Source of the DNA: an uncultured Bacillales bacterium | GTDB taxonomy: Bacteria > Bacillota_I > Bacilli_A > RF39 > UBA660 | NCBI GenBank assembly: GCA_905206805.1 | Contig: CAJLIR010000002.1 | Location: 26,999-90,998, forward strand | Length of the DNA: 64,000 bases | Reading direction: 5' to 3' | Shown here: piece by piece, positions 9,715 through 48,865 of the stretch | How positions within the stretch are numbered: the first letter of the stretch is position 1 | Layout: each line of letters starts with the position of its first letter | The notes under the pieces: model-generated | The model's input: the letters and a program-made list of their open reading frames with translations, nothing else | Database searches by the model: none | Told to the model about the DNA's origin: nothing | Position numbers and translations under genes: made by a program

Positions 9715-10158
9715 ATGAAAAAAGGATTTACGTTAGCTGAACTTTTAGCTGTTATAGTTATTTTAGGGCTTTTAGCTTTAATTGCTGTACCAGTTGTATT
9801 AAATAAAATTAAATCTACAAAAGAAGATTTATATAATAATCAAATTGAAATGATTAAATCTGGCGCTATTAGTTACGTTACTAGTGAAATTACACATTTA
9901 AAATCTGATTCACCATTTTATACACCTGTTACAAATCATACAAGGGTAACTATTACAAAAACTTTAAGTGAATTACAAAATGATGGGTTTTTAGACGAAA
10001 ATATTTTAAATCCACTTTGTGATGGAAGTGACAAATATTTTTCTCCTTTAGAAACTAAAATTGAAATTATTTATGATGGTAGAGAATTTTCTTATGAAGT
10101 ATCAAGTACTGGTAATTTACGTGAAAGTTGCACTGCGAAAATTGATAGGGGGAATTAA
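9715..10158 (+). CDS. Type IV pilin / pseudopilin with prepilin N-terminal methylation motif
   Basis: MKKG|FTLAELLAVIVILGLLALIAVP class III signal peptide. Two Cys near the C-terminus. Confidence 0.8.
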   Translation: MKKGFTLAELLAVIVILGLLALIAVPVVLNKIKSTKEDLYNNQIEMIKSGAISYVTSEITHLKSDSPFYTPVTNHTRVTITKTLSELQNDGFLDENILNPLCDGSDKYFSPLETKIEIIYDGREFSYEVSSTGNLRESCTAKIDRGN

Positions 10159-24609: not shown

Positions 24610-25380
24610 GTGGATTTGATGCGATTAAGAATTCATTTAAAGAAAAAAAGGCATAAACTTAGTGTTGGTAATACAATTATAATAATTTTTATTTTAGTAG
24701 TAACAATGACTTATTTTTCGCTTAATTATTTAAATAAAAATGTTGTTCCTGTATTAATGAGTTATGCAACAAGTCAAGTAAGAAAATTTTCTAGTTTAAT
24801 TATAAATAGGGCCATTTCAAAACAAATTGCCGAAGATTTAAGTGTAGAGGATATGTTTATAATAACTAAATCAGAAACAGGTGAAATAAGAACTATTGAT
24901 TTTGATCCAATTGTTGTAAATAAAACCTTAAATAAAATTGTTAATACAATACAGTTAAATTTAAAATCTTTAGAAGAAGGAAAATTAGAATTATTAGAGT
25001 TACCAGATAATGTTTTAATTGATTATAATGAAGAGGAATTATCAAAAGGTGTTATATATGAAATACCTAGTGGTGTAGTTTTCAATAATTCTCTGCTTGC
25101 TAATTTAGGACCAAAAATTCCTGTTAAATTAAGTTTAATTGGTGATATAGTTAGTAATGTAAATACAAAAGTTACCAATTATGGTATTAATAATGCTTTA
25201 ATAGAAGTTAGTATTTATGTTCAAGTTGAATCAAGAGTTATACTACCATTTATAACTGATACAGTAATAGTTGAAACAGAAATTCCTGTTGCTATGAAAT
25301 TAGTTCAGGGAATAGTTCCAGATTATTTGCTAGGAGGATTAACTAATAGTTCAGTTCCAATAAAAGTTCCAAATGAATAA
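24610..25380 (+). CDS. yunB: Sporulation protein YunB
   Basis: N-terminal TM. NNSLLANLGPKIPVKL...YGINNALIEV...VQGIVPDY closely follows my memory of B. subtilis YunB. Confidence 0.75.
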   Translation: MDLMRLRIHLKKKRHKLSVGNTIIIIFILVVTMTYFSLNYLNKNVVPVLMSYATSQVRKFSSLIINRAISKQIAEDLSVEDMFIITKSETGEIRTIDFDPIVVNKTLNKIVNTIQLNLKSLEEGKLELLELPDNVLIDYNEEELSKGVIYEIPSGVVFNNSLLANLGPKIPVKLSLIGDIVSNVNTKVTNYGINNALIEVSIYVQVESRVILPFITDTVIVETEIPVAMKLVQGIVPDYLLGGLTNSSVPIKVPNE

Positions 25381-25400
25381 GTAATAGATTGTGGTGTTTT

Positions 25401-27098
25401 ATGAAAAAAATAGTAAAAGTAATAATATTTGTGATAATTATTTTAGTTTTAGTTGTTGGTTTTTTATTTAAAGACAAAATATTTAAAAAAATAAAACCAG
25501 AAATTATTAATGAAAAAGATATGTATGTATCTAGCATAAGTTTAGAAAGTACCTTATATGATTTAGATTTTAATGAAAAAGGTAAAGTTGTAAGAGGAAC
25601 TAAAGTACATGCTTTTGAAAAAGATTTAAAGAATTCTCAAAATGAATCTGACGAAAATACTTATTTAAAAATTTTATACAATGATGAAGAAGTATTGATG
25701 TTAAAAAATGATTTAGTTTCTAGCTTAGAAGAATGTGTTCTGGAGAAAGAAAAATATGTAAGAACACCAGTATCAATTTATAATGATAGTGAATCAGTAG
25801 ATATAATTGGTCTTATTAATAAGGGTGAAAAAGTAGAAATAATAGGATTTGACAAAATTTTAGAAAATGGTCGTGTTTCAAAATATAAAATAAAATATAA
25901 TGAAACTGGGGGATATATTTATGAAAAGTATTTAGTTGATACTTATGAAGAATCGGTAAAAAATTATGATCAGGATGGAATTTATCAAACTCATTTAGCG
26001 CGAACTGATACACAAGGTGGAGGATCTGCTGGAAACCTAGATTATTATCCTTATGAAAAACCAGTTTTTACTAATAATGTTATGCCAAATGAAGTTAGAA
26101 GTTTGTATTTAAATGGTGGTGTTTTAGGTAATCTTGATGATTATATTAAACTTGCTAAAGAAAAGAATATAAATGCTTTTGTAGTAGATATTAAAGATAG
26201 TGGTTCTCCATCATATGCATCAAAAGTAATGCAAGAATTATCACCAACAAATTATAATAATGCGATTAATTCATTTGAGAGTTATCAGGCTGCAATAAAA
26301 AAAATAAAGGATAATGGTTTTTATGTAATAGGAAGAATTACCGTTTTTAAAGATCACTATTTTGCTCAAGATCATCCCGAATATGCGATAGTAAATAGTT
26401 CTAGTGGAACTTTGTTTTCACATAATGGTTCATATTGGCCAAGTGCCTACCAGAGAAAAGTTTGGGAATTTAATGTTAAATTAGCTCGTGAGGCAGTAGT
26501 AGAAATGGGCTTTAATGAAATACAATTTGATTACGTCCGTTTCCCAGATAGAACATATAGATTAGAAGCTAATGGTGTTATGAATATGCGAAATGATTAT
26601 AATGAAGAAAAGGCCCAAGCAATACAGAGATTTTTAATGTATGCGTGTGATGAGATACATAGTGTTGGTGCTTATGTATCTGCGGATGTCTTTGGAGAGT
26701 CAGCATATACCTATGTTGCTGCGTACGGACAATATTGGCCTAGCATATCTAATATTGTCGATGTTATTAGCGCAATGCCATATCCAGATCACTTTAATAC
26801 TCACGATTTTGGAATTAGTGAAGTAGTTTGGACAGTTCCTTATAAATTAATGTATACTTGGGGTGGATATGCTGCATCTCGTCAAAAAGAAATTCCAACT
26901 CCTGCAATTGTTAGAACTTGGATTCAAGCTTATGATACAATTAAAAGTCCATACATTGTATATGATGCTAGTAAAATCTCAGATCAAATTCAAGGATTAT
27001 ACGATGCTGGATTAAGAGGAGGATATATGACTTGGAATTCTGGTTCAAGTTTGGTAAAATATAATTATATTTCATCAGCATTTCAAAAGGAGTATTAG
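25401..27098 (+). CDS. Putative glycoside hydrolase (DUF4015/GHL TIM-barrel, YngK-like) with N-terminal SH3-like repeats
   Basis: N-terminal signal/TM. EIQFDYVRFP motif typical of the DUF4015 putative glycosyl hydrolase family. Confidence 0.65.
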   Translation: MKKIVKVIIFVIIILVLVVGFLFKDKIFKKIKPEIINEKDMYVSSISLESTLYDLDFNEKGKVVRGTKVHAFEKDLKNSQNESDENTYLKILYNDEEVLMLKNDLVSSLEECVLEKEKYVRTPVSIYNDSESVDIIGLINKGEKVEIIGFDKILENGRVSKYKIKYNETGGYIYEKYLVDTYEESVKNYDQDGIYQTHLARTDTQGGGSAGNLDYYPYEKPVFTNNVMPNEVRSLYLNGGVLGNLDDYIKLAKEKNINAFVVDIKDSGSPSYASKVMQELSPTNYNNAINSFESYQAAIKKIKDNGFYVIGRITVFKDHYFAQDHPEYAIVNSSSGTLFSHNGSYWPSAYQRKVWEFNVKLAREAVVEMGFNEIQFDYVRFPDRTYRLEANGVMNMRNDYNEEKAQAIQRFLMYACDEIHSVGAYVSADVFGESAYTYVAAYGQYWPSISNIVDVISAMPYPDHFNTHDFGISEVVWTVPYKLMYTWGGYAASRQKEIPTPAIVRTWIQAYDTIKSPYIVYDASKISDQIQGLYDAGLRGGYMTWNSGSSLVKYNYISSAFQKEY

Positions 27099-27099
27099 T

Positions 27100-27378
27100 A
27101 TGGATAAATATATATTAGAAGACACAGAATATAAATTAATTGAAAATTATAAAGATGGTTTTAATTTTGAAGAATTAAAAAATAAATATACTGATTATTT
27201 TAAAGATTATGATTATATAGTTGGTGATTGGGCTTATGGTAAACTTAGATTAAAAGGTTTTTGTAACAAAAATAATCCAAATTTAACAAATATAAATGAT
27301 TTTTCAATGTATAAAGATTATATAAAAAATCATTGTGCTTATGAATGTAAGTATTTTGTAATAGAAAAATTAAATTAA
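27100..27378 (+). CDS. yutD: YutD family protein (DUF1027)
   Basis: YDYIVGDWAYGKLRLKGF motif and about 90 aa length. Confidence 0.7.
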   Translation: MDKYILEDTEYKLIENYKDGFNFEELKNKYTDYFKDYDYIVGDWAYGKLRLKGFCNKNNPNLTNINDFSMYKDYIKNHCAYECKYFVIEKLN

Positions 27379-27428: not shown

Positions 27429-27456
27429 ACTTCATACAATTTTATGAGGTGGTATA

Positions 27457-28700
27457 ATGTTTGTAAAAGATTATCATAGAAGAATTAAAATTGTGTTAGT
27501 AGTAATTATTTTGTTATTTATTTTAATTATAAGTAAAATATTTTATATTCAAGTATTTAGTTATAAAAAACTTAATAATTATGCTAACAGTTTATGGAGT
27601 AGAAACTTACCAATAGAAGCAAATAGAGGAATAATTTATGATAGAAATGGTGTTGTAATTGCCGATAATATTACGACAACATCACTTGTTCTTATTCCAA
27701 ATCAAATTGAAGATAAGGAAGATGTATCAAAAAAATTAGCAGAAATATTAAATGTAAGTTATGAAGAAATGTATGCACATGTTAGTAAAAAAACTTCTAT
27801 AGAAAGGGTTCATCCAGAAGGAAGAAGACTTTCATATGAGGTGGCCGATAAAATTGCGTCATTAAACCTTGATGGTGTCTATTTAGTTAAAGAATCCAAA
27901 CGAAATTATCCTTTTGATACATATTTATCTCACACAATTGGGTTTGTCGGAATAGATAATCAAGGATTAAGTGGACTAGAACTTATGTATAATAATGTTT
28001 TAACTGGTGAATATGGAGCAATAAAATATTTTAGTGATGCTAAAGGTAATAGATTAAGTTTAAATGAAGTTTACGAAAAACCTCAAGATGGAATTAATAT
28101 GACTTTAACTATAAATATGGATATTCAAAGTTCTTTAGAAAGAGAATTAGATAACGCAATGTTAAAATATAATCCTGATCAGGCTCTTGGAATTGTAATG
28201 GATCCAAAAAGTGGCGAAATTTTAGCAATTTCAGCAAGACCTAATTTTTCTCCTAGTAATTATCAAAATTATACAGTTGAAGAAATTAATAGAAATTTAC
28301 CAGTTTGGATGACATATGAACCAGGATCAACTTTCAAAATAATTACACTATCAGCATCATTAGAAGAAAAAATTGTTGATTTGGATAATGATACATTTTT
28401 TGATTCAGGTGCAATTACAGTTGATAATGCAACACTTCATTGTTGGAAACATGGAGGACATGGAGCTCAAACATATTTGCAGGTTGTAGAGAATTCTTGC
28501 AATCCGGGGTTTGTTAATTTAGGATTAAAATTAGGTAAAGAAAAATTGTTTGATTATATAAAAAAATTTGGTTTTGGAACTAAAACGGGAGTTGACCTAA
28601 ACGGTGAAGGTTCTGGAATAATTTTTAATTTGGATAAAGTAGGCAATGTAGAACTTGCAACAACTGCCTTTGGTCAAGGAGTAAGTGTGACACCTATACA
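27457..28700 (+). CDS. spoVD: SpoVD-type class B penicillin-binding protein, 5' segment (interrupted; the as-integrated ORF runs 4 more codons to the stop at 28713)
   Basis: WSRNLP and the PBP dimer domain. SxxK = STFK and SxN = SCN are present. Ends ...ATTAFGQGVSVTPI, then reads HLTV* into foreign DNA. Confidence 0.9.
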
Positions 28701-28720
28701 CCTTACTGTCTAATAAATGA
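28696..28720. repeat. attL: junction repeat ATACA plus element-terminal inverted repeat GTCTAATAAATGA
   Basis: ATACA at 28696-28700. The 13-mer at 28708-28720 is the exact reverse complement of 45549-45561. Confidence 0.8.
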
Positions 28721-28809
28721 TATCACAAAAATCACTAGAGGAATAAGTAGTAAATATACTAAAAAGTATGATGTTAGGTTTAATTATAATTGTTTTGTAG
28801 AAATATAAA

Positions 28810-28859
28810 ATGTTACTTTTAAAATTAAAATACCAAAATAATAATTAGAAAAGTAACAT
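28810..28859. terminator. Hairpin (11 bp perfect stem, 28 nt loop)
   Basis: ATGTTACTTTT ... AAAAGTAACAT. May insulate the cargo from read-through from the spoVD 5' fragment. Confidence 0.3.
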
Positions 28860-28876
28860 AAATATAATAAATTTTA

Positions 28877-28912
28877 TTTTTTTAGGAATTTTAATTAGTT
28901 TTTCCTAAAAAA
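28877..28912. terminator. Bidirectional terminator-like hairpin
   Basis: TTTTTTTAGGAA-13 nt-TTCCTAAAAAA, with A/T runs on both sides. Confidence 0.4.
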
Positions 28913-28956
28913 TAAAAATGATTTGTTTTAATCGCTATAGAAAAATGTATATGTAA

Positions 28957-28985
28957 TTTACAAAGTGATTAAAGTGTGATATATT
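28957..28985 (+). promoter_or_regulatory. Strong sigma-A promoter of the first cargo operon
   Basis: TTTACA (28957-62), 17 nt spacer, extended -10 TGaTATATT (28977-85). Confidence 0.55.
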
Positions 28986-29023
28986 ATAGGTGTAAATTAT
29001 TCAAAGAAAGGAGTGTGATTAAG

Positions 29024-29089
29024 ATGAAAAATTTACAAGTTATAAATAATGCAGAATTAATCACTACTCCTAATTTATTAAACTTTTAG
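29024..29089 (+). CDS. 21-codon leader peptide MKNLQVINNAELITTPNLLNF
   Basis: GGAG RBS 10 nt upstream. Codons 8-13 lie inside the antiterminator arm. A terminator follows. Confidence 0.45.
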   Translation: MKNLQVINNAELITTPNLLNF

Positions 29090-29140
29090 GAATATTCTTT
29101 TAGATTATAAAATTAATTCTGCATTATGCAGAATTTTTTT
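29046..29140 (+). promoter_or_regulatory. Leader-peptide transcription attenuator (mutually exclusive helices)
   Basis: The 16 nt ATAATGCAGAATTAAT (29046-61, inside the leader ORF) is perfectly complementary to 29112-29127. That segment is also the 5' arm of the terminator AATTCTGCA-TTA-TGCAGAATT-TTTTT (29115-29140). Confidence 0.55.
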
Positions 29141-29157
29141 GTTAGGAGGATATTAAA

Positions 29158-29913
29158 ATGATAATGAAATTAAATATTAATGATAGAACAGCACTAGCTA
29201 TCAAAAATAATACTAAAAGAGTAGAGATTAGAGCAAATAAAGAAAATAGTGAGCATGATTATGGCAAGTTAAGACAAAACGATATTATAGAATTTACTAG
29301 TAATAATTTAGGTGTATTTTATGTTAAAGTTAAAGAGATAAATCATTATAATTCATTAGAAGAACTTTTTACTTTAGAAGGTACAAGATATACAACTTCA
29401 TCTACTAATGATAAAGAAGAAGCAATTAGAAATATTAGTAAACTTGATGGATATCAAGATGCTATTAAGAAAAATGGTGTATACGCTATTCATATAGAAT
29501 ACTTATATAGTGAAAATACTGCTTGGGAAGAATTATATGAAAAGGCAAAGAGTGTTAGAAATCCAAGAAATGTATCAGGTATGATTAGTGCAGGACAAGT
29601 TGGCGCAGCAATATTAACTAAAAATCATAATATTTATACTGGAGTATGTATTGATACAGCTTCAACACTTGGTATGTGTGGAGAGCGAAATGCTATTGCC
29701 AATATGATTACAAATGGAGAAAATGAGATTATTAAACTAGTATGCGTTGATTCTAAAGGTAATGTAGGTTCACCGTGTGGGGCATGTAGAGAATATATGA
29801 TGCAACTTTCTAAGAATAGTAAGGATATTGAGATACTAAAAAATATTGATACTAAAGAAATAGTGAGATTAGAAGAATTAATTCCTGATTGGTGGGGTAA
29901 GACACGTGTATAA
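29158..29913 (+). CDS. ASCH domain fused to cytidine/blasticidin-S deaminase-family domain
   Basis: N-terminal PUA-like ASCH pattern (IKNNTKRVEIR). C-terminal MCGERNAI (CxE) and SPCGACREYM (PCxxC) zinc motifs. ELIPDWWG tail as in small tetrameric CDA/BSD enzymes. Confidence 0.7.
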   Translation: MIMKLNINDRTALAIKNNTKRVEIRANKENSEHDYGKLRQNDIIEFTSNNLGVFYVKVKEINHYNSLEELFTLEGTRYTTSSTNDKEEAIRNISKLDGYQDAIKKNGVYAIHIEYLYSENTAWEELYEKAKSVRNPRNVSGMISAGQVGAAILTKNHNIYTGVCIDTASTLGMCGERNAIANMITNGENEIIKLVCVDSKGNVGSPCGACREYMMQLSKNSKDIEILKNIDTKEIVRLEELIPDWWGKTRV

Positions 29914-29925
29914 TAAACTTAAAAG

Positions 29926-30270
29926 ATGACATTTAGGATAGATGCAGATAAATTAGTTGTTCTTGTTTTAAACGGTAAGAAGACAGCAACAACATCTTTG
30001 TATGAATTTGATAGTTTACCTATAGTAGGTGATGTATCTATACTTACTGATTCAAATAATAATGATATGTGTATATTAGAAACAAAAGAAGTTATTGTAA
30101 CTGAATTTAAGAATATTACTTGGGATTTAGCAAAATTAGAAGGAGAAAATAAATCTTTAGAAGAATGGATAAAAGTTCATATAGATTACTTTAGTAAAAT
30201 AAATACTAATTTTAATGATAATACTAAAGTAATATTTGAAATATTTGAAGTAATAGAAAAATTTAAGTAG
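29926..30270 (+). CDS. ASCH domain protein (YqfB-like)
   Basis: VLNGKKTATTS motif and about 114 aa, typical of stand-alone ASCH proteins. Confidence 0.65.
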   Translation: MTFRIDADKLVVLVLNGKKTATTSLYEFDSLPIVGDVSILTDSNNNDMCILETKEVIVTEFKNITWDLAKLEGENKSLEEWIKVHIDYFSKINTNFNDNTKVIFEIFEVIEKFK

Positions 30271-30285
30271 AAAGGAGAGACAAAC

Positions 30286-39219: not shown

Positions 39220-41187
39220 ATGAGATTTGTTAAATTAGATACTAATGATAAAAATTATTTTAACAATATTAACAAAATTTTTTTAGAAGATGAAACAAGT
39301 GTTATTGTCTTATGTAATAATTCTTATATAACTTATCATTCTTATATTGATTCAGTTAAAGTTGGCTATAATCCAATAATAGAAGAAGATAAGTTGCAAC
39401 AAGATATTAAAGAAATAGAAAATGTTTGGAGTAATAATACTTATATAGATAAACATAGATGGAATTATTTATACAAAGATAATGACAAAGTAATTGATTA
39501 TTTAAGAAGTTTAAATCTCAAAAAAATATACATTACTGGTGAATTATCTAATATTTTATATAGTTATATTAATGTATATGGTAACGATTTTGAGGTAGAA
39601 GTAATTGATTATGATTTAGATATAGTAAAAAAATTAATCGATAATAATGAAATAGTATTAGATACTTGTTTAAATGGATTAAAACTCAAAGAAATACTAT
39701 TTAATAAAAATTTAATAAGTTTAACTAAATTATGTGAAAATGTTGAATATTACTATTTTGTTAAAAAATTATCTAAAAAACTTGATATAACAGTATTTGA
39801 ATTTCCTAGTACTGATGACATAACATCTTTTAGTTTAGAAGAAAGAAAGAGATTAGATAGTAAAATAGGATATATATATTATTTAAGTAAATACAATATA
39901 GACGAAGAAATTACTAAATTATTAAATAGTATTTATGGTGAAAGTTTTATGACAAAATTTTGTGGTTTAGAAAATATTTCTCCTGGTACCATAATACAAA
40001 ATGGAATATGTAGATTAGCTGATTCAAATAATGAATTTTGTAGAACTATCAATGGTAAAAGAGTTACAACAGATAAAAATAGAGATTATGCTTTTGATAT
40101 TAATTTTTTAGGTCCTTGTATGGTATATGGAGTTTTAGTAGATGACAAAAACACTATTCCTAGTTGTTTGCAAAGAATAATAAATGAAAATAATAGAGAT
40201 TATTCTGTTAATAATTATGGATTAAGAGCTATGGAATTTTTTGAACAAGTAAGAATAGCTGATAATATCAATAGTAAACTTAATGATAAATTTATATTTA
40301 TAGTATCTAAGAAAGAAAATGAAGTATTAAAAAGTATGGGATATAATAGTGCTATATCACTTCTTGAATTATATAATTCAGGAGTATTAAAAAATTACTT
40401 TATAGATAAACCGGCACATTGTAATAGTGAAGCTAATGACATGATAGCACGTTTTATTTATGAAAAAATTGAAAAAGAATTAAAGACTGTTGATTCTATT
40501 AATCATACTTTAGCAATAGCTATTCCTAATACTAAAAAAAGAAATATATTTGGTAACAATAGATATTTGAATGAATATTTAGAATTTCTTAAGGGTTTAA
40601 ATATTAATACTAGCAATAATGGTGCAATACTTATGAATTGTAATCCATTTACTTATGGTCATTATAAACTGATAGACTATGCTAGAAAAGAAGTTAATAC
40701 TTTAATTGTAATGGTTGTACAAGAAGATAAATCAAAATATTCTTTTAAAGATAGATATGAAATGGTTAAAGAAGGCTGTAAAGACTTTGAAAATGTAGTA
40801 GTAATACCAAGTGGTAAGATATTTGGTTCATCAATGATATTTCCTGAGTATTTTAATAGAAGTGAATCAACTGATGTATCTCTTGATTTATCAATAGATC
40901 AAGAAATATTTACTCAATATATAGCACCAGTCTTAAATATAAAAAAAAGATTTGTTGGTCAAGAACAAAATGACTACATAACTAGAGAATATAATAAAGA
41001 ACTTAAAAGAAATTTACCACTATATGGAATTGAATTAATAGAAATACCTAGATTTAGAAATATAAATGGTGATGAAATAAGCGCTAAGACAGTAAGAAGA
41101 GCAGTTGAAGAAAATGATGATGAATTGCTTGAAATATTAGTTCCTGAATCTACTTTAAGATTGATAAAAACTAGAAAAATGAAATAA
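39220..41187 (+). CDS. Large protein with C-terminal citrate-lyase-ligase (CitC)-like adenylyltransferase domain; N-terminal ~430 aa unknown
   Basis: NCNPFTYGHYKLIDYA (HxGH-type), FTQYIAPVLNIKKRFVGQEQNDYITREYN, and ISAKTVRRAVEEND follow the E. coli CitC C-terminal domain as I recall it. Confidence 0.6.
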   Translation: MRFVKLDTNDKNYFNNINKIFLEDETSVIVLCNNSYITYHSYIDSVKVGYNPIIEEDKLQQDIKEIENVWSNNTYIDKHRWNYLYKDNDKVIDYLRSLNLKKIYITGELSNILYSYINVYGNDFEVEVIDYDLDIVKKLIDNNEIVLDTCLNGLKLKEILFNKNLISLTKLCENVEYYYFVKKLSKKLDITVFEFPSTDDITSFSLEERKRLDSKIGYIYYLSKYNIDEEITKLLNSIYGESFMTKFCGLENISPGTIIQNGICRLADSNNEFCRTINGKRVTTDKNRDYAFDINFLGPCMVYGVLVDDKNTIPSCLQRIINENNRDYSVNNYGLRAMEFFEQVRIADNINSKLNDKFIFIVSKKENEVLKSMGYNSAISLLELYNSGVLKNYFIDKPAHCNSEANDMIARFIYEKIEKELKTVDSINHTLAIAIPNTKKRNIFGNNRYLNEYLEFLKGLNINTSNNGAILMNCNPFTYGHYKLIDYARKEVNTLIVMVVQEDKSKYSFKDRYEMVKEGCKDFENVVVIPSGKIFGSSMIFPEYFNRSESTDVSLDLSIDQEIFTQYIAPVLNIKKRFVGQEQNDYITREYNKELKRNLPLYGIELIEIPRFRNINGDEISAKTVRRAVEENDDELLEILVPESTLRLIKTRKMK

Positions 41188-41345
41188 ATCTCATTTTTGG
41201 CACTTTAATAACTAGTCTTTTTATGTTATATTTATAATGATGATAATAGAGCTTTTTATTTATAGAAATAAAAACAACAAATTTATAATTAACGATGATT
41301 TATTGAAAATATATGATGTAATTAAAAATAAATGGGAGGTTTTGT

Positions 41346-41741
41346 ATGAATACAAAAATTGTTTTGACTGGAATTTTGAAATCTAATGATGAATTTTTGG
41401 TAGTTAAAAGAAGTGAAAATGATGATTTATATCCAGGAGCATGGGAATTTCCTGGAGGCCACCTAGAAAGTGGTGAAACTTTAAAAGAAGGTTTAAAAAG
41501 AGAATTATTTGAGGAAATTGGGTTTAGTTCAGAATTTGAGCCAATTATTACACATTATTATGATGAAGTAAAAAATAAAAATGATGAATTGATTCATGAT
41601 TTAGAAATTGATTTTATTATTAATGTTAATAAATCAGATGTTAATGTTATATTAAGTGATGAACATTGTGATTATAAATGGGTAAAAAAGGATTCTTATT
41701 TGTTGGATGAATATATTAAAGATAAATTATCAAACATATAA
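41346..41741 (+). CDS. NUDIX hydrolase (MutT-like)
   Basis: WEFPGGHLESGETLKEGLKRELFEEIG Nudix box. Confidence 0.85.
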   Translation: MNTKIVLTGILKSNDEFLVVKRSENDDLYPGAWEFPGGHLESGETLKEGLKRELFEEIGFSSEFEPIITHYYDEVKNKNDELIHDLEIDFIINVNKSDVNVILSDEHCDYKWVKKDSYLLDEYIKDKLSNI

Positions 41742-41808
41742 AATTATCAAATTTTTAAAAATGTATCAAAAAAGTCCAAATTCGTACCAAAAACGGACTT
41801 GATTTGAC

Positions 41809-41880
41809 TTGAATATATTTTGTCAAGTGTTATAATATAGTAAAATATGTGAGAATTATGAAGAAAACTTACATATTTTT
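41809..41880 (+). promoter_or_regulatory. Promoter (TTGAAT-16-TGtTATAAT) followed immediately by a terminator hairpin: about 37 nt transcript unit 1
   Basis: -35 at 41809-14 and -10 at 41831-36. Hairpin AATATGTGAG-14 nt-CTTACATATT plus a T-run, 41844-41880. Confidence 0.4.
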
Positions 41881-41928
41881 ATGACACAAATTGTACATGA
41901 TATTACATGAATTGATCATAAAATGAAC

Positions 41929-42009
41929 TTGACTTGTGCTTGTCAATAGTTATAATAGTGTATAATATGAAAAAATTGTGTGGAGAGGAACTATGTTCTT
42001 CTCTTTTTT
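41929..42009 (+). promoter_or_regulatory. Promoter (TTGACT-16-TATAAT) followed by a terminator hairpin: about 47 nt transcript unit 2
   Basis: -35 at 41929-34 and -10 at 41951-56. Hairpin GAGAGGAAC-TAT-GTTCTTCTC plus TTTTTT, 41983-42009. Shares GACTTG...TTGTCAA..GTTATAATA with unit 1. Confidence 0.4.
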
Positions 42010-42075
42010 ATTTAAAGGAGATGGTTTTATAAATTAAAAAGTATAGGAAGCATATATTTTTAATGATTTTGTTAT

Positions 42076-42153
42076 GAGTGGTCACTTTTATTAAAAAGGG
42101 TAGCCACTTTTTTTGTTGGTATTAAAGGAATATTTATATATGAGTAGCCACTT
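42076..42153 (+). repeat. Three direct copies of a 12-mer (GAGTGGTCACTT, GGGTAGCCACTT, GAGTAGCCACTT)
   Basis: Copies at 42076-87, 42098-109, and 42142-53. Operator or iteron candidates upstream of the RHH gene. Confidence 0.55.
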
Positions 42154-42171
42154 ACTACTTAAAAAGTAGTC

Positions 42172-42191
42172 ATTTTTGCAAGTGCAAAAAT
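42172..42191. repeat. Perfect palindrome ATTTTTGCA-AG-TGCAAAAAT
   Basis: 9 bp arms with a 2 nt spacer, lying between the 12-mer copies. Confidence 0.5.
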
Positions 42192-42314
42192 AGTAATGAC
42201 ACCACCATATTTACTTTATTTTATAAGGTAAATATAAGATTATGGTGGCATTCTCCTTATGCCCATTAAAAATATGCAGAATTTATTACTCAAAGAATAG
42301 CTTAAAAATAGTAA

Positions 42315-42326
42315 AAGTGGCTACTC
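42315..42326 (-). repeat. Inverted fourth copy of the 12-mer (AAGTGGCTACTC = reverse complement of GAGTAGCCACTT)
   Basis: Exact reverse complement of copy 3, 30 nt upstream of the RHH start codon. Confidence 0.55.
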
Positions 42327-42355
42327 ATAATTTTAAGAAAGGAAGGAAAATTTTT

Positions 42356-42550
42356 ATGAGATGTACTGAAAGAACCACATTAAGATTAGATGATAATTTA
42401 AAAACTAGAATTAGGCTTTTATCTATTAAAAATAATTTTAGTATGAATAAAATGTTTATCTATTTATTAGAGCTAGGTTATAGATCTTATATAGAAAGAT
42501 ATGAAAAAGATTATGAATTTAAAATGGAAGGAGGAAAAATATTATGGTAA
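42356..42550 (+). CDS. Ribbon-helix-helix (CopG/Arc-like) DNA-binding protein
   Basis: AAGGAAGGA RBS. TTLRLDDNLKTRIRLLSIKNNFSMNKMFIYLLELG has a beta-strand/helix/helix pattern. The longer track ORF starting at 42242 is rejected. Confidence 0.65.
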   Translation: MRCTERTTLRLDDNLKTRIRLLSIKNNFSMNKMFIYLLELGYRSYIERYEKDYEFKMEGGKILW

Positions 42551-42873
42551 TAAGAACAGAAAAACTTACTAATTATACGAAGATTGATAACACTTATTTA
42601 GAAGATAAAAATATATCTTTAAAGGCAAAAGGATTATTAACTTTAATGTTATCTTTACCTGATGTATGGAATTTTAATATTAATGGTTTAAGACTTTTAT
42701 GTAAAGAGAGTAGATTAGCTATTACTAATGCACTAAAAGAATTAGAAGAAAATAGATATTTAATTATTGAAAAAGGACATTCTAAAGATGGTAAATTTTT
42801 ATATAACTATATTGTTTATGAAAAACAATATACCCAAAAAGTACACACTGAACAACCATATATGGATAATTAG
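42544..42873 (+). CDS. Winged-helix/HTH protein of the plasmid/phage replication-initiator N-terminal type (RepA_N/DnaD-like)
   Basis: YTKIDNTYLEDKNISLKAKGLLTLMLSL...ITNALKELEENRYLI pattern. Translationally coupled to the RHH gene. Looks C-terminally short. Confidence 0.45.
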   Translation: MVIRTEKLTNYTKIDNTYLEDKNISLKAKGLLTLMLSLPDVWNFNINGLRLLCKESRLAITNALKELEENRYLIIEKGHSKDGKFLYNYIVYEKQYTQKVHTEQPYMDN

Positions 42874-43127
42874 ATAGTATAAATAACTTAAAGATTAATA
42901 AAGTAAAACAAATATAAAATAGATAAAACAAAAAAATTATTATTATTTTTATAAAAAACTCTTGCAAAATTTATTTTTTTAAGTGATAAATATTAAAACT
43001 AAATTTTAATTTATTGATGCTTAATATAAGAAATAAGAGACTTTAATATTAATCTTAATCAGTTATTAGTATAAAAAATAAAGTCTCTTAAAATGACTTA
43101 AATTGAAAATGAAGGAGTGTGTTTGAT

Positions 43128-43553
43128 ATGTATTTAAAAAATACAAGTAATGAAGAAAAAGAATTAGTTATAAAAATAAATGAACTTGATAGAGATGATA
43201 AACTAAAATTTATTAATTATATTTTTGATTTATGGGATAAAAATCAAATTAATAGTTTGAATGAGGTTAATCCTAATTTACTTGATGATGGTATAGATAT
43301 AGAAATATTTAATCCGAGTAGTATTGATTATCGTTATTTAGTAATTGAGAATAAAGAGTATTGTAACTATACTTTTAATCTTTATCGTCTTTATCCAAAA
43401 GAATATAAAGAATTAATACCAGTGTTTGAAAAATTATCATTTAAAGAAAAGAAAGATACACTTGCAGAATTATTCTTGATATTAGGACATGATGAATTAT
43501 TACCTGATAATATTGATGGCTATGAAATAGCTAGAAAAATTATAAAATATTAA
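43128..43553 (+). CDS. Hypothetical protein
   Basis: GAAGGAG RBS. No motif recognised. Confidence 0.45.
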   Translation: MYLKNTSNEEKELVIKINELDRDDKLKFINYIFDLWDKNQINSLNEVNPNLLDDGIDIEIFNPSSIDYRYLVIENKEYCNYTFNLYRLYPKEYKELIPVFEKLSFKEKKDTLAELFLILGHDELLPDNIDGYEIARKIIKY

Positions 43554-43720
43554 TAATAAAAAACTAAATTGTTATTTGAAAACTTAATTTATTTCAAATG
43601 ATGATTTAGTCTAATTTTGTCCTTTGTGGTATTTAAGTTTTCAAATTTTTTGTAGAACTTAATACCTTAAGTTCTTTTTAAGTTTTTATAAAAATAAACT
43701 TAAAAGAAAGGACAAAGTAT

Positions 43721-43927
43721 ATGGAAAGCATGAATAAAGTTCCATCAAAAATTATTGAAATAGAAACAAGTATTAAATTACTTGAATATTTAAAAAGAAA
43801 TAATACTATTGATGATGGAATGTATAATTTTTGTATTAATAAATTGTTACATAAAATAGAATTTGAAAAGCAAAAACAAGATGATAAATATATAAATGAT
43901 TTAAACAATTATAAACTATTAACTTAG
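43721..43927 (+). CDS. Small (68 aa) protein immediately upstream of the recombinase; recombination directionality factor candidate
   Basis: Position only, 11 nt before the recombinase start. No motif recognised. Confidence 0.35.
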   Translation: MESMNKVPSKIIEIETSIKLLEYLKRNNTIDDGMYNFCINKLLHKIEFEKQKQDDKYINDLNNYKLLT

Positions 43928-43938
43928 GAGGTGTGATT

Positions 43939-45588
43939 ATGGACTTATATATAGTTAGGAATAATATTATGAAAGGTGTTCCGTTACAAGAATTAAATTT
44001 AAGAGTATGTTTTTATGCCAGAGTATCAACTGATAAAGATGAACAATTACATTCTTTACAAAGTCAAATATCTTTCTTTAATGATTATATTAGTAAAGTT
44101 CCTAACTGGGAATTTATAGGTTCATATATTGATGAAGGAATATCAGGTACACAAGTTAAAAAACGTGAAGAATTTTTAAGAATGATAGAAGATGCTAAAA
44201 GGCATAAGTTTGATTTAATCTTAACTAAAGAAATATCAAGATTTTCAAGAAGTACACTAGATAGTATTAAATATACACAAGAATTATTATCAAATGGTGT
44301 TGGTGTATATTTTCTAAATGATAATATTAATACGATATTACCTGATTCTGAACTTAGACTTACAATGATGTCTTCAATTGCTCAAGATGAAGTAAGAAGA
44401 CTTTCTGAAAGAGTTTCATTTGGGATGAAGAGAAGTATTGATAATGGTGTAGTGTTAGGATGTTCTAATATTTATGGTTATGTAAAAGATAAAGGAAAAT
44501 TAGTAATCGTTGAAGAACAAGCAAAAATGATTAAGATAATATTTGATAGATATGCTAATACTACTGATGGATTATCTAAAGTATCAAGATATTTATATAG
44601 TTTAGAATATAAGAGCAAAACTGGTAAACGAATAGATACTACAATCCTTACAAGAATTATAGAAAATCCTAAATATAAAGGATATTATTGTGGACATAAA
44701 TCAAAGGTATTAGACTATCGTACAAAACAAAAGAAAAGATTAAATGAATCTGATTGGATAATATATAAAGATTATGATAATGTTCCACCAATAGTATCTG
44801 AAGAACTATGGGAACGAGCTAATATTAAACTAAAGCAACGACAAGATAGTTTTACAAATCGTGCAGTTAATAAAGCAGTATTTCAAAATAGATATACATA
44901 TTCAGGAAAAATATATTGTGGTTGCCATAATTTAACTTATCATAGATCAAGTGCGGGAAAAAGAAAAAATAATCCTGTATGGGAATGTCAAGTATATCGG
45001 AAAGAAAGTTTAAAAGGGTGTTCAAATCCTAGAGTATTTGAACTGGAACTTGATGAAGTTTTTAAAGATATGTTTAATAAATTATTTAAAAGAAGAAATA
45101 ATATCTTTGATGAGATATTAAATGAATGTAAGAATTATTTAGAAACTAATAATAATGATATTGAAATAAAAAATATTGAATCTAAAATATCAGTTTTAAA
45201 TAATAAAAAAGATAAATTATTAGAACTAGTTATGGAAGAATACCTATCTAAAGAAGATTACAAAAAACAAGTTGATTTAATAAATGAAGATTTAGTTATT
45301 TACCAAAGTAAAATGAACGAATTAAAAAATAATAAGAAAGATAAAAATTATATAGAAAATAAAATTAATGAAATTAAAATTTTATTAGAAAAATGCTTAG
45401 ATGATGATAAATGTTATAGTGATGTATTTAATGAAATAATAGATAGAATAATAGTTTATAAAGAAAGTGAAAAACAAATTAAATTAGATATTTTTATTAA
45501 GACAGGAGAAAGTATAAATACACTTTCTAATAATTTAGGTAAAAAGTTTCATTTATTAGACCTCAATACAACAAATAACTGCTGTTAG
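43939..45588 (+). CDS. Large serine recombinase
   Basis: AGGAGG RBS. RVCFYARVSTDKDEQ..SLQSQ catalytic Ser region, resolvase domain, recombinase domain, Cys-rich zinc ribbon (YCGCHNLTYH...WECQ), and coiled coil. The stop lies 16 nt beyond the crossover, inside spoVD DNA. Confidence 0.9.
   Translation: MDLYIVRNNIMKGVPLQELNLRVCFYARVSTDKDEQLHSLQSQISFFNDYISKVPNWEFIGSYIDEGISGTQVKKREEFLRMIEDAKRHKFDLILTKEISRFSRSTLDSIKYTQELLSNGVGVYFLNDNINTILPDSELRLTMMSSIAQDEVRRLSERVSFGMKRSIDNGVVLGCSNIYGYVKDKGKLVIVEEQAKMIKIIFDRYANTTDGLSKVSRYLYSLEYKSKTGKRIDTTILTRIIENPKYKGYYCGHKSKVLDYRTKQKKRLNESDWIIYKDYDNVPPIVSEELWERANIKLKQRQDSFTNRAVNKAVFQNRYTYSGKIYCGCHNLTYHRSSAGKRKNNPVWECQVYRKESLKGCSNPRVFELELDEVFKDMFNKLFKRRNNIFDEILNECKNYLETNNNDIEIKNIESKISVLNNKKDKLLELVMEEYLSKEDYKKQVDLINEDLVIYQSKMNELKNNKKDKNYIENKINEIKILLEKCLDDDKCYSDVFNEIIDRIIVYKESEKQIKLDIFIKTGESINTLSNNLGKKFHLLDLNTTNNCC
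45549..45570. repeat. attR: element-terminal inverted repeat TCATTTATTAGAC plus junction repeat ATACA
   Basis: The 13-mer at 45549-61 is the reverse complement of 28708-20. ATACA at 45566-70. Confidence 0.8.
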
Positions 45589-46231
45589 CGCTGCAATAAA
45601 TGGTGGATATTTATATAAGCCTTACATTGTTAAAAGTTTAAATGAACCTGAAACTAATACTATTATTAAACAAAACGATAAACAAATTGTAAGAAAAGTT
45701 ATAAGTGAAGAGACAAGTGAAAAGGTTAGATATGCTCTAGAGAGTGTTGTTTCAAACGGTACAGGAAGACCAGCGTATATAGATGGATATAGAGTTGGAG
45801 GAAAAACTGGTACTGCTCAAAAAGTTAAAGATGGAAGATATATGGTAGGTAACTACATTGTGTCATTTATAGGATTTCTTCCTGCTGATGATCCAGAAGT
45901 GATTGTTTATATTGCAGTTGATAATGCTAAAGGTGTTACGCAATATGGAGGAACTATTGCGGCACCAATTGCGAAAACTGTTTTAACTGACGCTATAACA
46001 GCTTTACATATTGATAAAAGAAGTGGCAGTACTGAAAAAAAATACAATTATAATGATAAAAAATATGTTGATGTTGCTAATGTAGTTGGAATGAGTAGAA
46101 ATGAAGCAATTAAAGCACTGAAATCATTTAAAGTTGAATATACGGGTACAGGTGAAAATGTAACTTATCAGTCTCCTGCAGCTGGAGAGCGAATTTTAGA
46201 AGGTGAAACAGTAAGATTATTATTAGAGTAA
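45571..46231 (+). CDS. spoVD: SpoVD-type PBP, 3' segment (no own start; in frame with the 5' segment after excision)
   Basis: (Q)QITAVSAAINGGYLYKPYIVK, GGKTGTAQK (KTG motif), and one C-terminal PASTA domain (VANVVGMSRNEAIKAL...). The frame is open from the junction. Confidence 0.9.
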
Positions 46232-46258: not shown

Positions 46259-46304
46259 GACAATAAATATAAGTTAAGTGATATATACTAACTTTGGTGA
46301 TTAT

Positions 46305-46478
46305 ATGAAAGTAAAATTATTTGATGAAGCGCACGAAAAAGATTTAGAAAATTCTATAAATGAATTTTTAACGGATTTTGAAGGAGAAATAATAGATATA
46401 AAATATCAAGTTTCAATAGGTGTTTTTTCAGAGGAACAAATTTATTGTTTTTCAGCCATGATTATTTATACAAAGTAA
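46305..46478 (+). CDS. cse60: Sporulation protein Cse60-like
   Basis: MKVKLFDEAHEKDLENSINEFL...IIDIKYQV...YCFSAMIIY matches my memory of the 60 aa B. subtilis Cse60. Start moved to the ATG after GGTGA. Confidence 0.6.
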   Translation: MKVKLFDEAHEKDLENSINEFLTDFEGEIIDIKYQVSIGVFSEEQIYCFSAMIIYTK

Positions 46479-46540
46479 AATTGATTAAAAATAATAATTA
46501 TTATTCATAATAACATAGAATATATAGAGGAGGATAATAT

Positions 46541-48865
46541 ATGTTTGGAAATTTTACGGAAGAAGCTAGAATTATTTTGACACACGCTAAAAAAGAAATG
46601 TATGAACTTAAACATCCGTATATTGGAAGTGAGCATTTATTATTGGCAATATTAAAAGAAAAAAATGATATTTCAAAAAAATTATTAGAATATAATTTAA
46701 ATTATGATAAATTCAAATCAGAAATTGTTAAAGTAGTTGGAAAGGGAACAAAGGAAAGTGAATGGTTCTTATATACTCCCTTATTAAAAAGAATAATCGA
46801 AAATGCTATATTAGATAGTAAAGATAATAATTCTGGTAATGTAACGGTTGAACATCTTTTTTCTAGTATGTTAGAAGAAGGAGAAGGCGTTGCTATTAGA
46901 ATTATGTTAGGAATGAATATTGATTTAGAAGAGTTATATAATGAATTCTCATATAAATTGGTAAGCAAACCTAGAGGTAAAAAAAATAAAAAATTATTGT
47001 TAGAAGAACTAGGTGTAGATTTAACGGAAAAAGCTTTAAAAGGCGAACTTGATCCTGTTATAGGTAGAGATAAGGAAATAAAAAGAGTGTTAGAAATATT
47101 ATCTCGTAGAACAAAAAATAATCCATTATTAATTGGCGAAGCAGGAGTCGGAAAAACTGCAATTGTAGAAGAATTAAGTAAAATGATATCAACCGGTGAT
47201 GTTCCTATGTCACTTAAAAATAAAAGAATTATTAGTTTAGATATGGCAACAACTGTAGCAGGAACAAAATACCGTGGTGAATTTGAGGAAAGAATAAGAA
47301 AAATTTTAAAAGAAATAGAAGAAAATGATGATATAATTCTTTTTATTGATGAAATTCATACATTAGTTGGAGCAGGTGGTGCAGAAGGCGCTATAGATGC
47401 TTCAAATATATTTAAACCTGCACTTGCAAGAGGAAAATTAAGATGTATTGGTGCAACTACAATAGATGAATATAAAAAATTTATTGAGTCAGATGGAGCA
47501 CTAGAAAGACGTTTTCAAAAAGTTTTAGTAGAAATACCAAATAAAAAAGTTGTAAGAGATATTTTGATGAAATTAAAGGGAATATATGAAAAATTTCATT
47601 TAGTTAAAATTAGTGATGAAATAATTGATTTAATTATCGAATTATCAGAAAAATATATTTATGATAGAAATCAACCAGATAAGGCAATAGATCTTTTAGA
47701 TGAAGTTTGCGCTAAAGTAAGTCTAACAGAAAGTAAGGAGTTTAAAAAATATAATTCACTAAATAAAGAACTTAAAGAAGTTTTAAAAAATAAAAATAAA
47801 TCAATTATTGAGGGCAATTTTGATGAAGCTGCCTCATATAAAGAAAAAGAAAATATCCTAATGGATAAAATAAATAAATTAGAATTAACACTTCATAAAA
47901 AGGATAAATACAATATTGTTACAAAAGAAGATGTTGCTAATGTTATAAATATAAAAACAAAAATTCCTGTATATGAACTTTTAAGCGATAATATGTCGGC
48001 TATTGATACTTTAGAAAAAAATTTAAGTGGCCATATTATTGGTCAAGATAAAGTTGTAGAAAGTTTAGTAAAAATTGCTAAAAGAATAAAGTTAGGTTTT
48101 AATGATGAAAATAAATGTTATGCTATGTTATTTTGTGGTTCATCAGGAGTAGGTAAAACTTTATTAGCAAAAACATTTGGAGAAAGTTTAGTTGGAAGGG
48201 AAAATGTTATAAAACTTGATATGGGAGAATATGCAGAAAGTCACTCAATTAGTAAAATTATTGGTGCTCCTCCCGGATATGTAGGATATTCAGATAATAA
48301 AAATATATTAGAATTAATAAGAAATAAACCATATTCTGTATTAATATTAGATGAAATAGAAAAATCTGATCCAAATATAATTAATTTATTCTTTCAAATA
48401 TTAGATGATGGAAAAATAAAAGATTCCTGTGGAAGAGAAGTTAGATTTGATAATGTAACAATTATAATGACTTCAAATATTGGTTTTAATGATATAGAAA
48501 TAGGTTTTAATAAGAAAAATAATGATGTGGTACTTTCAAAATTAAAAGAATATTTTTCACTTCCATTTATAAATAGAATAGATAATACAGTTATTTTTAA
48601 TAAATTAAATTATGATAATATAGAAAAAATTACAAAGAAAAAATTAAGTGAATTAAAATCAAAGTATTTAAAGAAAAATATCAAATTACGCTTTTCAAGT
48701 GATTTGATTAAGGAAATTATTGACGAATCAAATTACGAAGAATTTGGAGCTCGTAAAATAGATAAAGTAATTAAAGAAAGAGTAGAAAATGAAATAATTG
48801 AGAAAGTATTAGATGGAAAAAATAATATTTTGATAAAACCAAATTTAGAAAAAAGTGTTGTTTAG
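46541..48865 (+). CDS. clpC: ATP-dependent Clp protease ATP-binding subunit ClpC-like (class I AAA+)
   Basis: Two Clp_N repeats, two AAA modules (GEAGVGKTA, GSSGVGKT), and a UVR-like linker (FDEAASYKEKE). Confidence 0.85.
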   Translation: MFGNFTEEARIILTHAKKEMYELKHPYIGSEHLLLAILKEKNDISKKLLEYNLNYDKFKSEIVKVVGKGTKESEWFLYTPLLKRIIENAILDSKDNNSGNVTVEHLFSSMLEEGEGVAIRIMLGMNIDLEELYNEFSYKLVSKPRGKKNKKLLLEELGVDLTEKALKGELDPVIGRDKEIKRVLEILSRRTKNNPLLIGEAGVGKTAIVEELSKMISTGDVPMSLKNKRIISLDMATTVAGTKYRGEFEERIRKILKEIEENDDIILFIDEIHTLVGAGGAEGAIDASNIFKPALARGKLRCIGATTIDEYKKFIESDGALERRFQKVLVEIPNKKVVRDILMKLKGIYEKFHLVKISDEIIDLIIELSEKYIYDRNQPDKAIDLLDEVCAKVSLTESKEFKKYNSLNKELKEVLKNKNKSIIEGNFDEAASYKEKENILMDKINKLELTLHKKDKYNIVTKEDVANVINIKTKIPVYELLSDNMSAIDTLEKNLSGHIIGQDKVVESLVKIAKRIKLGFNDENKCYAMLFCGSSGVGKTLLAKTFGESLVGRENVIKLDMGEYAESHSISKIIGAPPGYVGYSDNKNILELIRNKPYSVLILDEIEKSDPNIINLFFQILDDGKIKDSCGREVRFDNVTIIMTSNIGFNDIEIGFNKKNNDVVLSKLKEYFSLPFINRIDNTVIFNKLNYDNIEKITKKKLSELKSKYLKKNIKLRFSSDLIKEIIDESNYEEFGARKIDKVIKERVENEIIEKVLDGKNNILIKPNLEKSVV

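Follow-up and report, generated by a model that had tools for sequence, protein, structure and literature searches.

The present study analyzes a split sporulation gene in 64 kb of AT-rich DNA (about 24% G+C; the whole stretch is called the window here) from an uncultured gut bacterium. The gene is spoVD, whose product is the class B penicillin-binding protein (PBP) that builds the spore cortex, and it is interrupted by an island with a large serine recombinase (LSR) at its right end (Table 1). The 5′ open reading frame (ORF) at 27457–28713 encodes 418 amino acids (aa), with the SxxK motif STFK at residues 291–294 and the SxN motif SCN at 347–349. After ...GQGVSVTPI it reads HLTV, four codons supplied by the element, and stops at 28713; the motifs and the ending are as given in a preliminary description made from the letters of the window. 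The continuation that had been placed in frame at 45571–46231 is also there: translation from 45569 gives QQITAVSAAINGGYLYKPYIVK..., then GKTGTAQ with the KTG motif and one PASTA domain, and finishes at 46231. The catalytic motifs are divided between the two pieces, as had been noted, and the Pfam Transpeptidase profile (299 positions) is cut in two, with positions 4–167 in the N piece and 166–298 in the C piece. Both halves are free of frameshifts and internal stops. Because the insertion parts SxxK and SxN from KTG, neither piece alone can be an active enzyme.

Joining position 28700 to 45571 yields an ORF of 634 aa, the length that had been estimated beforehand, and the product is of the SpoVD type. 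It scores 739.9 bits against TIGR02214 spoVD_pbp, an NCBI curated equivalog with a cutoff of 688, and falls far under the cutoffs of all other PBP models in NCBIfam. Of the solved structures, C. difficile SpoVD (7RCZ) matches it best, with E = 2e-121 and 409 bits (251 bits for the runner-up), and the joined protein carries STFK at 291, SCN at 347 and KTG at 493 within PBP_dimer, Transpeptidase and PASTA domains. That the fragments are contiguous parts of one PBP is borne out by an intact 634-aa protein (P0121), found on nine contigs in a search with the N fragment, which differs from the joined ORF at two of 634 residues (Y433F and R591K). The split gene and its intact conspecific counterparts are separated by 18–20 synonymous changes and two conservative non-synonymous ones. 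Three loci with this intact protein (L100–L102) have the gene order of the window, i.e. FtsX-like, TetR, CBS, YunB, DUF4015, YutD-like, SpoVD, Cse60 and ClpC, and the window with the island excised in silico is colinear with them over 10.5 kb at 98.3–98.4% identity, gapless at the junction. The predicted attB 40-mer occurs exactly in these three empty-site loci of the same species. Uninterrupted spoVD in related genomes, which the preliminary description had named as a comparison to make, was found not only in the conspecific loci but in 80 of 80 related species (the 80 best loci from contigs representing one genome per species), where ...TPIQQ... reads straight across the site. Within the window's own species, 11 contigs were occupied and nine were empty; the occupied ones, from independent samples and assemblers, encode an identical 418-aa N-fragment product. 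There was no second PBP and no second recombinase in the window.

The junctions were likewise as first described, with ATACA on both sides, a perfect 13-bp inverted repeat at the termini (GTCTAATAAATGA on the left being the reverse complement of TCATTTATTAGAC on the right) and arms 16 nt apart centred on CA. Together the ATACA copies and the arm positions define the ends of the element. In the deduced attP each arm lies 7 nt from CA, giving dyad symmetry around a 2-bp crossover whose dinucleotide is inferred, and across related elements the common core is reduced to TACA in a comparison of att sites. The terminal repeat was rejected as stand-alone evidence, exact 13-mer inverted pairs being as frequent in the 17 kb as in simulated sequence (46 observed, 47 ± 10 simulated). 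It is the position alone that is significant: for a single pair to lie in register and at equal distances from the two junctions, p is about 5e-6.

The recombinase lies at the right edge of the element, overlapping attR and co-oriented with spoVD, in agreement with the preliminary description. Its Resolvase (PF00239), Recombinase (PF07508) and Zn_ribbon_recom (PF13408) domains are all over cutoff, it matches the phrog_95 integrase family of PHROGs (E = 3e-109), and an embedded coiled coil was judged by eye from the sequence. The nearest NCBIfam models are CcrB, CcrC and XisF, all with scores far under their cutoffs (104.8 bits for CcrB and 100.9 for CcrC against 900), and the protein is therefore not a member of the Ccr family. 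No recombinase more than 44% identical was found in INPHARED phage or PLSDB plasmid records, the best phage record having 44%.

Several patterns indicate that the recombinase gene extends across attP into the left end of the element. Ten distinct left ends keep a frame of 35 codons open there and close it with a stop at one shared position, the other two frames containing 3–9 stops; variable sites number 15, 14 and 26 at the first, second and third codon positions; nucleotide identity is 78–82% and falls to about 40% right after the stop; and long-form recombinases occur among gene calls (P0036, 579 aa, on five contigs, and P0026, 565 aa). On these grounds the left-end stretch is coding, and the recombinase encoded by the circular form exceeds the integrated one by 35 residues. 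With the gene spanning attP, integration swaps the last 35 codons for a short host-encoded tail. A limited targeted search of the literature found no description of an integration-swapped C-terminus for serine integrases. A role of the tail swap in directionality is speculation.

The recombinase belongs to a family dedicated to this one site in spoVD. More than 120 clusters of homologues at 89–96% identity were found in databases, and a survey combining looked-up contigs with 78 metagenome loci covered recombinases at least 58% identical for which downstream sequence was available. Every recombinase surveyed (58–99% identity) directly precedes a SpoVD C-fragment beginning at residue 412–415. 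The hosts represent about 25 distinct spoVD alleles, with C-fragments from 100% down to 44% identical to that of the window, and the smallest elements measure about 6 kb, the largest at least 17 kb. Truncated N-fragments of 418 aa occur beside intact alleles in host lineages 99, 96, 89, 86 and 82% identical to the window's; all six such alleles (the window's, P0122, P0123, P0153, P0157 and P0230) are exactly 418 aa long, and a 386-aa product (P0152) has the same C-terminal end with a later called start. The C-fragment is open in 43 of 46 loci flanking an element.

Cargo and host appear to be only loosely tied to the recombinase. An identical recombinase (P0111) was found with two different cargo sets, and the exact 418-aa N-fragment allele of the window is followed by at least three different cargos across samples (L093–L096), which indicates rapid turnover or exchange of cargo at the site. 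The variants include the window's own cargo, one with a 536-aa gene after the deaminase (L095) and one with Pkinase, LysR and NUDIX genes (L096). Distances between recombinases and host SpoVD proteins correlate weakly (Mantel r = 0.32), and hosts with C-fragments 32% apart can carry recombinases that are 99.8% identical, so that the family must now be moving horizontally. Long-term vertical residence with co-divergence was rejected on the same two grounds, the weak correlation and the many near-identical recombinases in divergent hosts. Taken together, it is practically certain that the insertion is exact, that the joined gene is of the SpoVD type, that the empty site is real, that the family is dedicated to the site and moves between divergent hosts, and that the recombinase gene lies across attP.

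The TPI|QQ site is not the only one in spoVD. In two loci (L137, 566–5668, and L156, 3179–6421) a second element lies within the SxxK motif (EPGSTF|K), with a recombinase 41–43% identical to the window's, and in two others (L110, 2205–6136, and L104, 1–1400) another insertion lies at the SxN motif (SCN|PGF). The recombinase of L110 is about 40% identical to the window's, and none was detected in the available part of L104. In all four loci spoVD is in three pieces. Thus spoVD is a hotspot, and three recombinase lineages have converged on one gene.

attP-type junctions of the predicted geometry were assembled in six loci (L088–L092 and L141). In L141 (1–18383), an island with type I restriction-modification and KAP NTPase genes is joined to one with SMODS and AbiE genes, and the arrays of L092 and L141 also carry AbiEi/AbiEii and AAA_14/DUF4143 genes. 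L141 has a coverage of about 158×, compared with about 13× for another carrier contig from the same sample. At 30–70 of L141, a typical left end (GTCTAATAAATGA...) abuts ...GGCAGTCAAACACA|ACAAGTT, a flank that resembles neither spoVD nor a right end and that may mark another attachment site or a rearrangement. A second island was seen in L081 (14231–21078), about 2.5 kb downstream of spoVD-mraY-ftsW/spoVE, which ends in another serine recombinase and carries an APH kinase, a FolE2-type GTP cyclohydrolase, a methyltransferase, a kinase and queuosine salvage.

Table 1. Features of the split spoVD locus (positions refer to the window)
Feature	Position	Strand	Remarks
yunB, DUF4015 protein gene, yutD-like (upstream host neighbours)	24610–27378	+	yunB 24610–25380; DUF4015 protein 25389–27098; yutD-like 27100–27378
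CATA-type −10-like box upstream of spoVD	27433–27440	+	CATACAAT; of the kind used by mother-cell sigma E/K
spoVD 5′ fragment	27457–28700	+	codons 1–414 plus 2 nt; PBP dimerisation domain and first transpeptidase half with SxxK and SxN
Core ATACA in attL	28696–28700	+	inferred crossover dinucleotide CA at 28699–28700
Intervening element	28701–45570	+	16,870 bp; in-silico excision colinear with empty-site loci L100–L102
Left-end segment	28701–28808	+	last 35 codons and stop of the recombinase in the circular form: PYCLINDITKITRGISSKYTKKYDVRFNYNCFVEI*
Left terminal inverted repeat (attP right arm)	28708–28720	+	GTCTAATAAATGA; kept in left ends of related elements
Cargo	29158–41741	+ except one	16 ORFs, about 12.6 kb; Pfam
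Conserved non-coding control region	41809–42330	+	conserved in L081, L083 and L088
Ribbon-helix-helix (Arc-like) protein, 64 aa	42356–42550	+	phrog_582, E = 2e-4; conserved across elements
Winged-helix protein, 109 aa	42544–42873	+	phrog_4707, E = 8e-21; resembles N-terminal domain of phage replication initiators; conserved across elements
144-aa protein	43119–43553	+	134–144-aa gene call in L081–L090; part of conserved module
68-aa ORF directly before recombinase	43721–43927	+	68-aa gene call at the same place in L081–L091
Large serine recombinase	43933–45588	+	likely start ATG 43939; crosses the crossover and ends after five host codons (TNNCC) and a stop
Right terminal inverted repeat (attP left arm)	45549–45561	+	TCATTTATTAGAC; kept in at least 50 related attR sites
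Core ATACA in attR	45566–45570	+	sequence match
spoVD 3′ fragment	45571–46231	+	second transpeptidase half with KTG, plus one PASTA domain
cse60-like, ClpC/ClpB-type ATPase gene (downstream host neighbours)	46278–48865	+	cse60-like 46278–46478; ClpC/ClpB-type ATPase 46541–48865

Inside the element, a conserved module precedes the recombinase. The control region has near-consensus sigma-70-type promoters at 41809–41836 and 41929–41956, a terminator-like hairpin at 41982–42004, and repeats of GT(A/G)G(C/T)CAC at 42078, 42100 and 42144 with an inverted copy at 42317, which have the look of iterons, or of operators to which the adjacent ribbon-helix-helix and winged-helix proteins could bind. In a promoter scan, sigma-70 sites were no more numerous than in shuffled sequence, and Rfam had no match inside the element. 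The hairpin lies about 30 nt past the second promoter, and a transcript of about 50 nt could result. The 144-aa and 68-aa proteins gave no family matches in NCBIfam or PHROGs. From its size, position and conservation alone, the 68-aa ORF is a candidate recombination directionality factor; to our knowledge, the directionality factors of serine integrases have no common fold. The leader before it (43554–43720) is conserved beyond the level of coding sequence; within it, an inverted repeat (TTGAAA...TTTCAA) accompanies a terminator-like hairpin, GAACTTAATACCTTAAGTTC, with a T-run behind it, and this could be an attenuator of the 68-aa/recombinase operon.

The cargo encodes a deaminase-domain protein, an ASCH protein, two metallophosphoesterases, two GNAT acetyltransferases, a GT2 glycosyltransferase, a radical-SAM protein, a nucleotidyltransferase, two NUDIX proteins, an alpha/beta hydrolase and a citrate-lyase-ligase-like protein; a P-loop kinase-like protein at 37098–37577 is the product of the only minus-strand cargo ORF. 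Pfam and PHROGs detected no phage structural, packaging or lysis genes in the element, and PADLOC gave no convincing match to a defence system in the window's cargo. A prophage or prophage remnant was rejected, there being no phage structural genes in these searches. The element is a non-phage genomic island, inserted by the LSR through attP × attB recombination into the conserved GVSVTPI|QQ codon stretch of spoVD.

The genes around the island are confirmed, the preliminary description having named yunB, yutD and cse60 as neighbours. YunB matches TIGR02832 over cutoff, Pfam recognizes Spore_YunB, DUF4015 and YutD-like domains in the conspecific loci and Spore_Cse60 in L101 and L102, and the ATPase has Clp matches in NCBIfam. 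The closest intact orthologues come from gut metagenome-assembled genomes (MAGs) labelled uncultured Bacilli or Tenericutes, including Acholeplasma sp. CAG:878, Firmicutes bacterium CAG:822 and Candidatus Coprosoma; complete chromosomes in this set measure 1.26–1.54 Mb. A Clostridium origin, which the 24% G+C might suggest, was rejected on these grounds, and the host is no Bacillus either. CAG-822 and CAG-878 are genera of the order RF39, family CAG-822 (PMC8035907), and the host is an uncultured small-genome gut bacterium near that family. RF39 is uncultured; spore formation has been predicted from gene content, its ancestor was predicted to have lost most PBPs, and a gene-content survey found the presence of spoVD reduced or absent (PMC10868615). 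Split spoVD genes may contribute to this low count.

A CATA-type −10 element is a hallmark of sigma-E/K promoters, as known from the B. subtilis consensus. Of 79 orthologous loci (L001–L080), 76 have a CATA(T/C/A)A(N)T box, placed between −27 and −21 relative to the start codon, against a background of 14% per 43-nt window, and judged by that consensus the box looks like a sigma-E/K-type −10 element conserved across the RF39 lineage. Since the insertion is present in roughly half of the species' contigs, spoVD appears to be dispensable for growth, and it is under selection, given that it is intact in the 80 related species, changes mostly at synonymous positions and keeps its promoter box. Elsewhere in the window there is a 6S RNA gene at 2698–2882 (RF00013, 53.9 bits against a gathering threshold of 46.4), the sole Rfam match, and there are type IV pilus/competence-type genes at 102–1004 (GspF/PilC/ComGB-like) and 9715–10158 (pseudopilin) in what is a genome of about 1.3–1.5 Mb. 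It is speculation that natural transformation could spread the islands, which have no conjugation genes.

We infer, with the balance tipped slightly that way, that excision takes place in the mother cell during sporulation, and we lean to the same modest degree towards the whole statement that the island in spoVD is excised there to rebuild the gene and kept in the forespore. The recombinase would recombine attL with attR in the terminally differentiated mother cell, probably assisted by a small directionality factor; the best candidate is the conserved 68-aa ORF just upstream of the recombinase gene. Excision would free a circle of 16.87 kb and rebuild spoVD, which would then be transcribed from the CATA-type (sigma-E/K-like) promoter, and because the forespore would keep its integrated copy, the island would be inherited. 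The conserved CATA box, the tolerance of the insertion in about half of the species' contigs, the intact halves, the predominance of synonymous change and the convergence of three recombinase lineages are consistent with such a scenario. So is precedent: mother-cell excision is known for the LSR elements of sigK, spsM, spoVFB, spoVR and gerE, and all characterised LSR elements within mother-cell sporulation genes are excised during sporulation (PMC4191935, PMC5595907).

Several observations weigh against developmental excision, and many of them would suit an ordinary integrative island for which spoVD is just a landing site, with carriers that are asporogenous or form defective spores and with rare excision for transfer. 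The strongest promoters of the conserved module are sigma-70/sigma-A-like and stand beside the repressor-like ribbon-helix-helix gene, which looks like the layout of an ordinary mobile-element switch, and no CATA box was found in the conserved region before the 68-aa/recombinase operon. The horizontal spread is very recent, and the intact halves could therefore merely reflect young insertions. C-fragments are cut short in L126, L140 and L168, at 154, 34 and 174 codons; these are short or low-coverage contigs, each with an intact counterpart of the same host allele in another sample, and the shortening could be due to sequencing errors or to real decay, the latter being what an ordinary island would predict. 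Tandem accretion and defence-type cargo are found in other genomic islands as well: L092 (4174–13392) has two recombinases, two attP-type junctions and no overlap of its ends, and is thus a tandem array and no circle, and L088 continues into an L096-like element, circle and array not being separable there. Among the species' contigs no sample held attB together with attL or attR of one strain, and an IUPAC pattern for the attP type had 0 matches in JGI metagenome contigs and IMG/VR. Sporulation in RF39 is itself a prediction for an uncultured clade, and the survey that found spoVD reduced there (PMC10868615) fits an ordinary island too. Even so, we consider an ordinary island unlikely: spoVD is conserved in the 80 related species with synonymous-dominated change and a retained promoter box, a costly knock-out is hard to square with occupation of about half of the contigs and with three recombinase lineages, and the characterised LSR elements in mother-cell genes are all excised during sporulation (PMC4191935, PMC5595907).

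Excision might instead occur in any cell type, as a reversible switch thrown at low frequency or under stress in vegetative cells. A subpopulation with intact spoVD would arise, its lineages losing the element or being entered by it again, so that sporulation would be phase-variable at the level of the population, in likeness to what is called active lysogeny. The presence/absence polymorphism within one species with nearly identical flanks, the repressor-type control region and the different cargos behind one N-fragment allele, which imply repeated turnover, could be read in this way, but the idea is quite improbable, given that germ-line excision would lose the element and yet the family is highly prevalent, that no single sample holds both states of one strain, and that the convergence of three recombinase lineages on a gene with a mother-cell-type promoter would be left unexplained. 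Hardly any weight can be given to misassembly or chimeric binning, or to a dead paralogue with a working spoVD elsewhere. The window does come from an uncultured organism and a second copy was inspected for within 64 kb, but the same attL recurs in 11 contigs of independent sample and assembler origin, related attR sites recur in more than 50, the flanks keep the synteny of empty-site loci, the window has no second PBP and neither half has a frameshift or internal stop. A broader possibility, doubtful as a whole, is that in uncultured RF39 gut bacteria spoVD is a landing pad with several sites (SxxK, SxN and TPI|QQ) for mobile cargo islands of several recombinase lineages, some with defence genes, which would park there because the gene is needed only in a disposable mother cell. 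The long recombinase of the circle and the short one of the integrated form would then be part of a directionality switch in which the 68-aa protein possibly takes part, the circle being biased towards integration and the chromosomal copy towards excision.

If excision in the mother cell is true, spoVD, the gene for a cortex-synthesis enzyme, would join the few sporulation genes known to be under the control of DNA excision, and the phenomenon would extend to RF39, a prevalent human-gut clade of uncultured, predicted sporulators with reduced genomes. A split spoVD can also escape gene-content surveys that predict sporulation from MAGs, where a bias is possible. The family is abundant in public gut metagenomes, passes from one divergent host to another with variable cargo, restriction-modification, SMODS and AbiE genes included, and could be used to test whether mother-cell genes are safe harbours for mobile DNA. 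A recombinase with well-defined natural attB, attP, attL and attR sites and a C-terminus that depends on the integration state bears on directionality control and on tools for genome engineering.

No spoVD-splitting element was known to the preliminary description, and a literature search found none. The sole paper mentioning spoVD together with attB concerns the attachment-site specificity of integrative and conjugative elements (PMC3715440); it is reportedly a study of ICEBs1 secondary insertion sites. What is new here is spoVD as the target and RF39 as the host clade; several insertion sites in one gene mark the family, and its recombinase gene is rearranged by integration. We regard the element as a new, non-phage type of sporulation gene-intervening element in the skin/SPbeta/vfbin/vrin/gin class. 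The skin/SPbeta-like design proposed earlier is partly supported: the LSR insertion is precise, in-frame and reversible, whereas excision in the mother cell, the defining property of skin and SPbeta, is putative.

With no phage structural genes, the element is closer to gin than to skin. The gin element lies in gerE of Bacillus cereus ATCC 10987 and has the GirC recombinase and the 42-aa GirX directionality factor (PMC5595907). Like the spoVD element, it is a non-phage element that splits a mother-cell sporulation gene, combines an LSR with a very small conserved partner ORF, and has a short common core between inverted repeats from which excision would restore the frame. The two differ in target (gerE versus spoVD), in host (B. 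cereus versus an uncultured RF39 bacterium) and in the number of recombinases, three in gin and one here, and it is here that the recombinase gene spans attP and that a widespread family shows variable cargo and tandem arrays. For gin, excision specific to sporulation has been demonstrated, while for the spoVD element it is putative. Elements of the skin type (SpoIVCA) interrupt sigK in B. subtilis, C. difficile (CD1231/CD1234), C. tetani and C. perfringens (PMC5025042, bioRxiv 10.1101/2022.02.25.481979). They resemble the spoVD elements in having the recombinase at the edge, co-oriented with the split gene, in having across hosts essentially the recombinase alone in common, and in ranging in size from a few kb to tens of kb. 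They are, however, prophage-derived and split a sigma-factor gene, whereas the spoVD element is without phage genes and splits an enzyme gene.

The SPbeta prophage, of 134 kb, is an active phage, in contrast to the spoVD element. It interrupts spsM and depends on SprA and SprB (PMC4191935, PMC5499854). The likeness is in the pairing of an LSR with a small directionality factor (a candidate here), in horizontal mobility, and in excision in the mother cell (putative here) to rebuild a gene for the spore envelope; sprB has a documented mother-cell promoter, and none was identified in the spoVD element. The staphylococcal cassette chromosome (SCC) elements, with CcrA, CcrB or CcrC, are likewise serine-recombinase islands without phage or conjugation genes, with variable cargo and with tandem accretion at one site, and Ccr models are the best NCBIfam matches of the spoVD-element recombinase, yet at 104.8 bits, where the cutoff is 900. 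The insertion site of SCC is the 3′ end of rlmH, and the gene survives insertion. Finally, placement of attP inside a coding sequence of the element, such that integration alters a C-terminus, is known from the integration-dependent immunity of mycobacteriophages and from the split integrase of SSV1. These systems use tyrosine integrases, and in the mycobacteriophages the altered protein is a repressor, whereas the protein that exchanges its tail in the spoVD element is the large serine recombinase itself.

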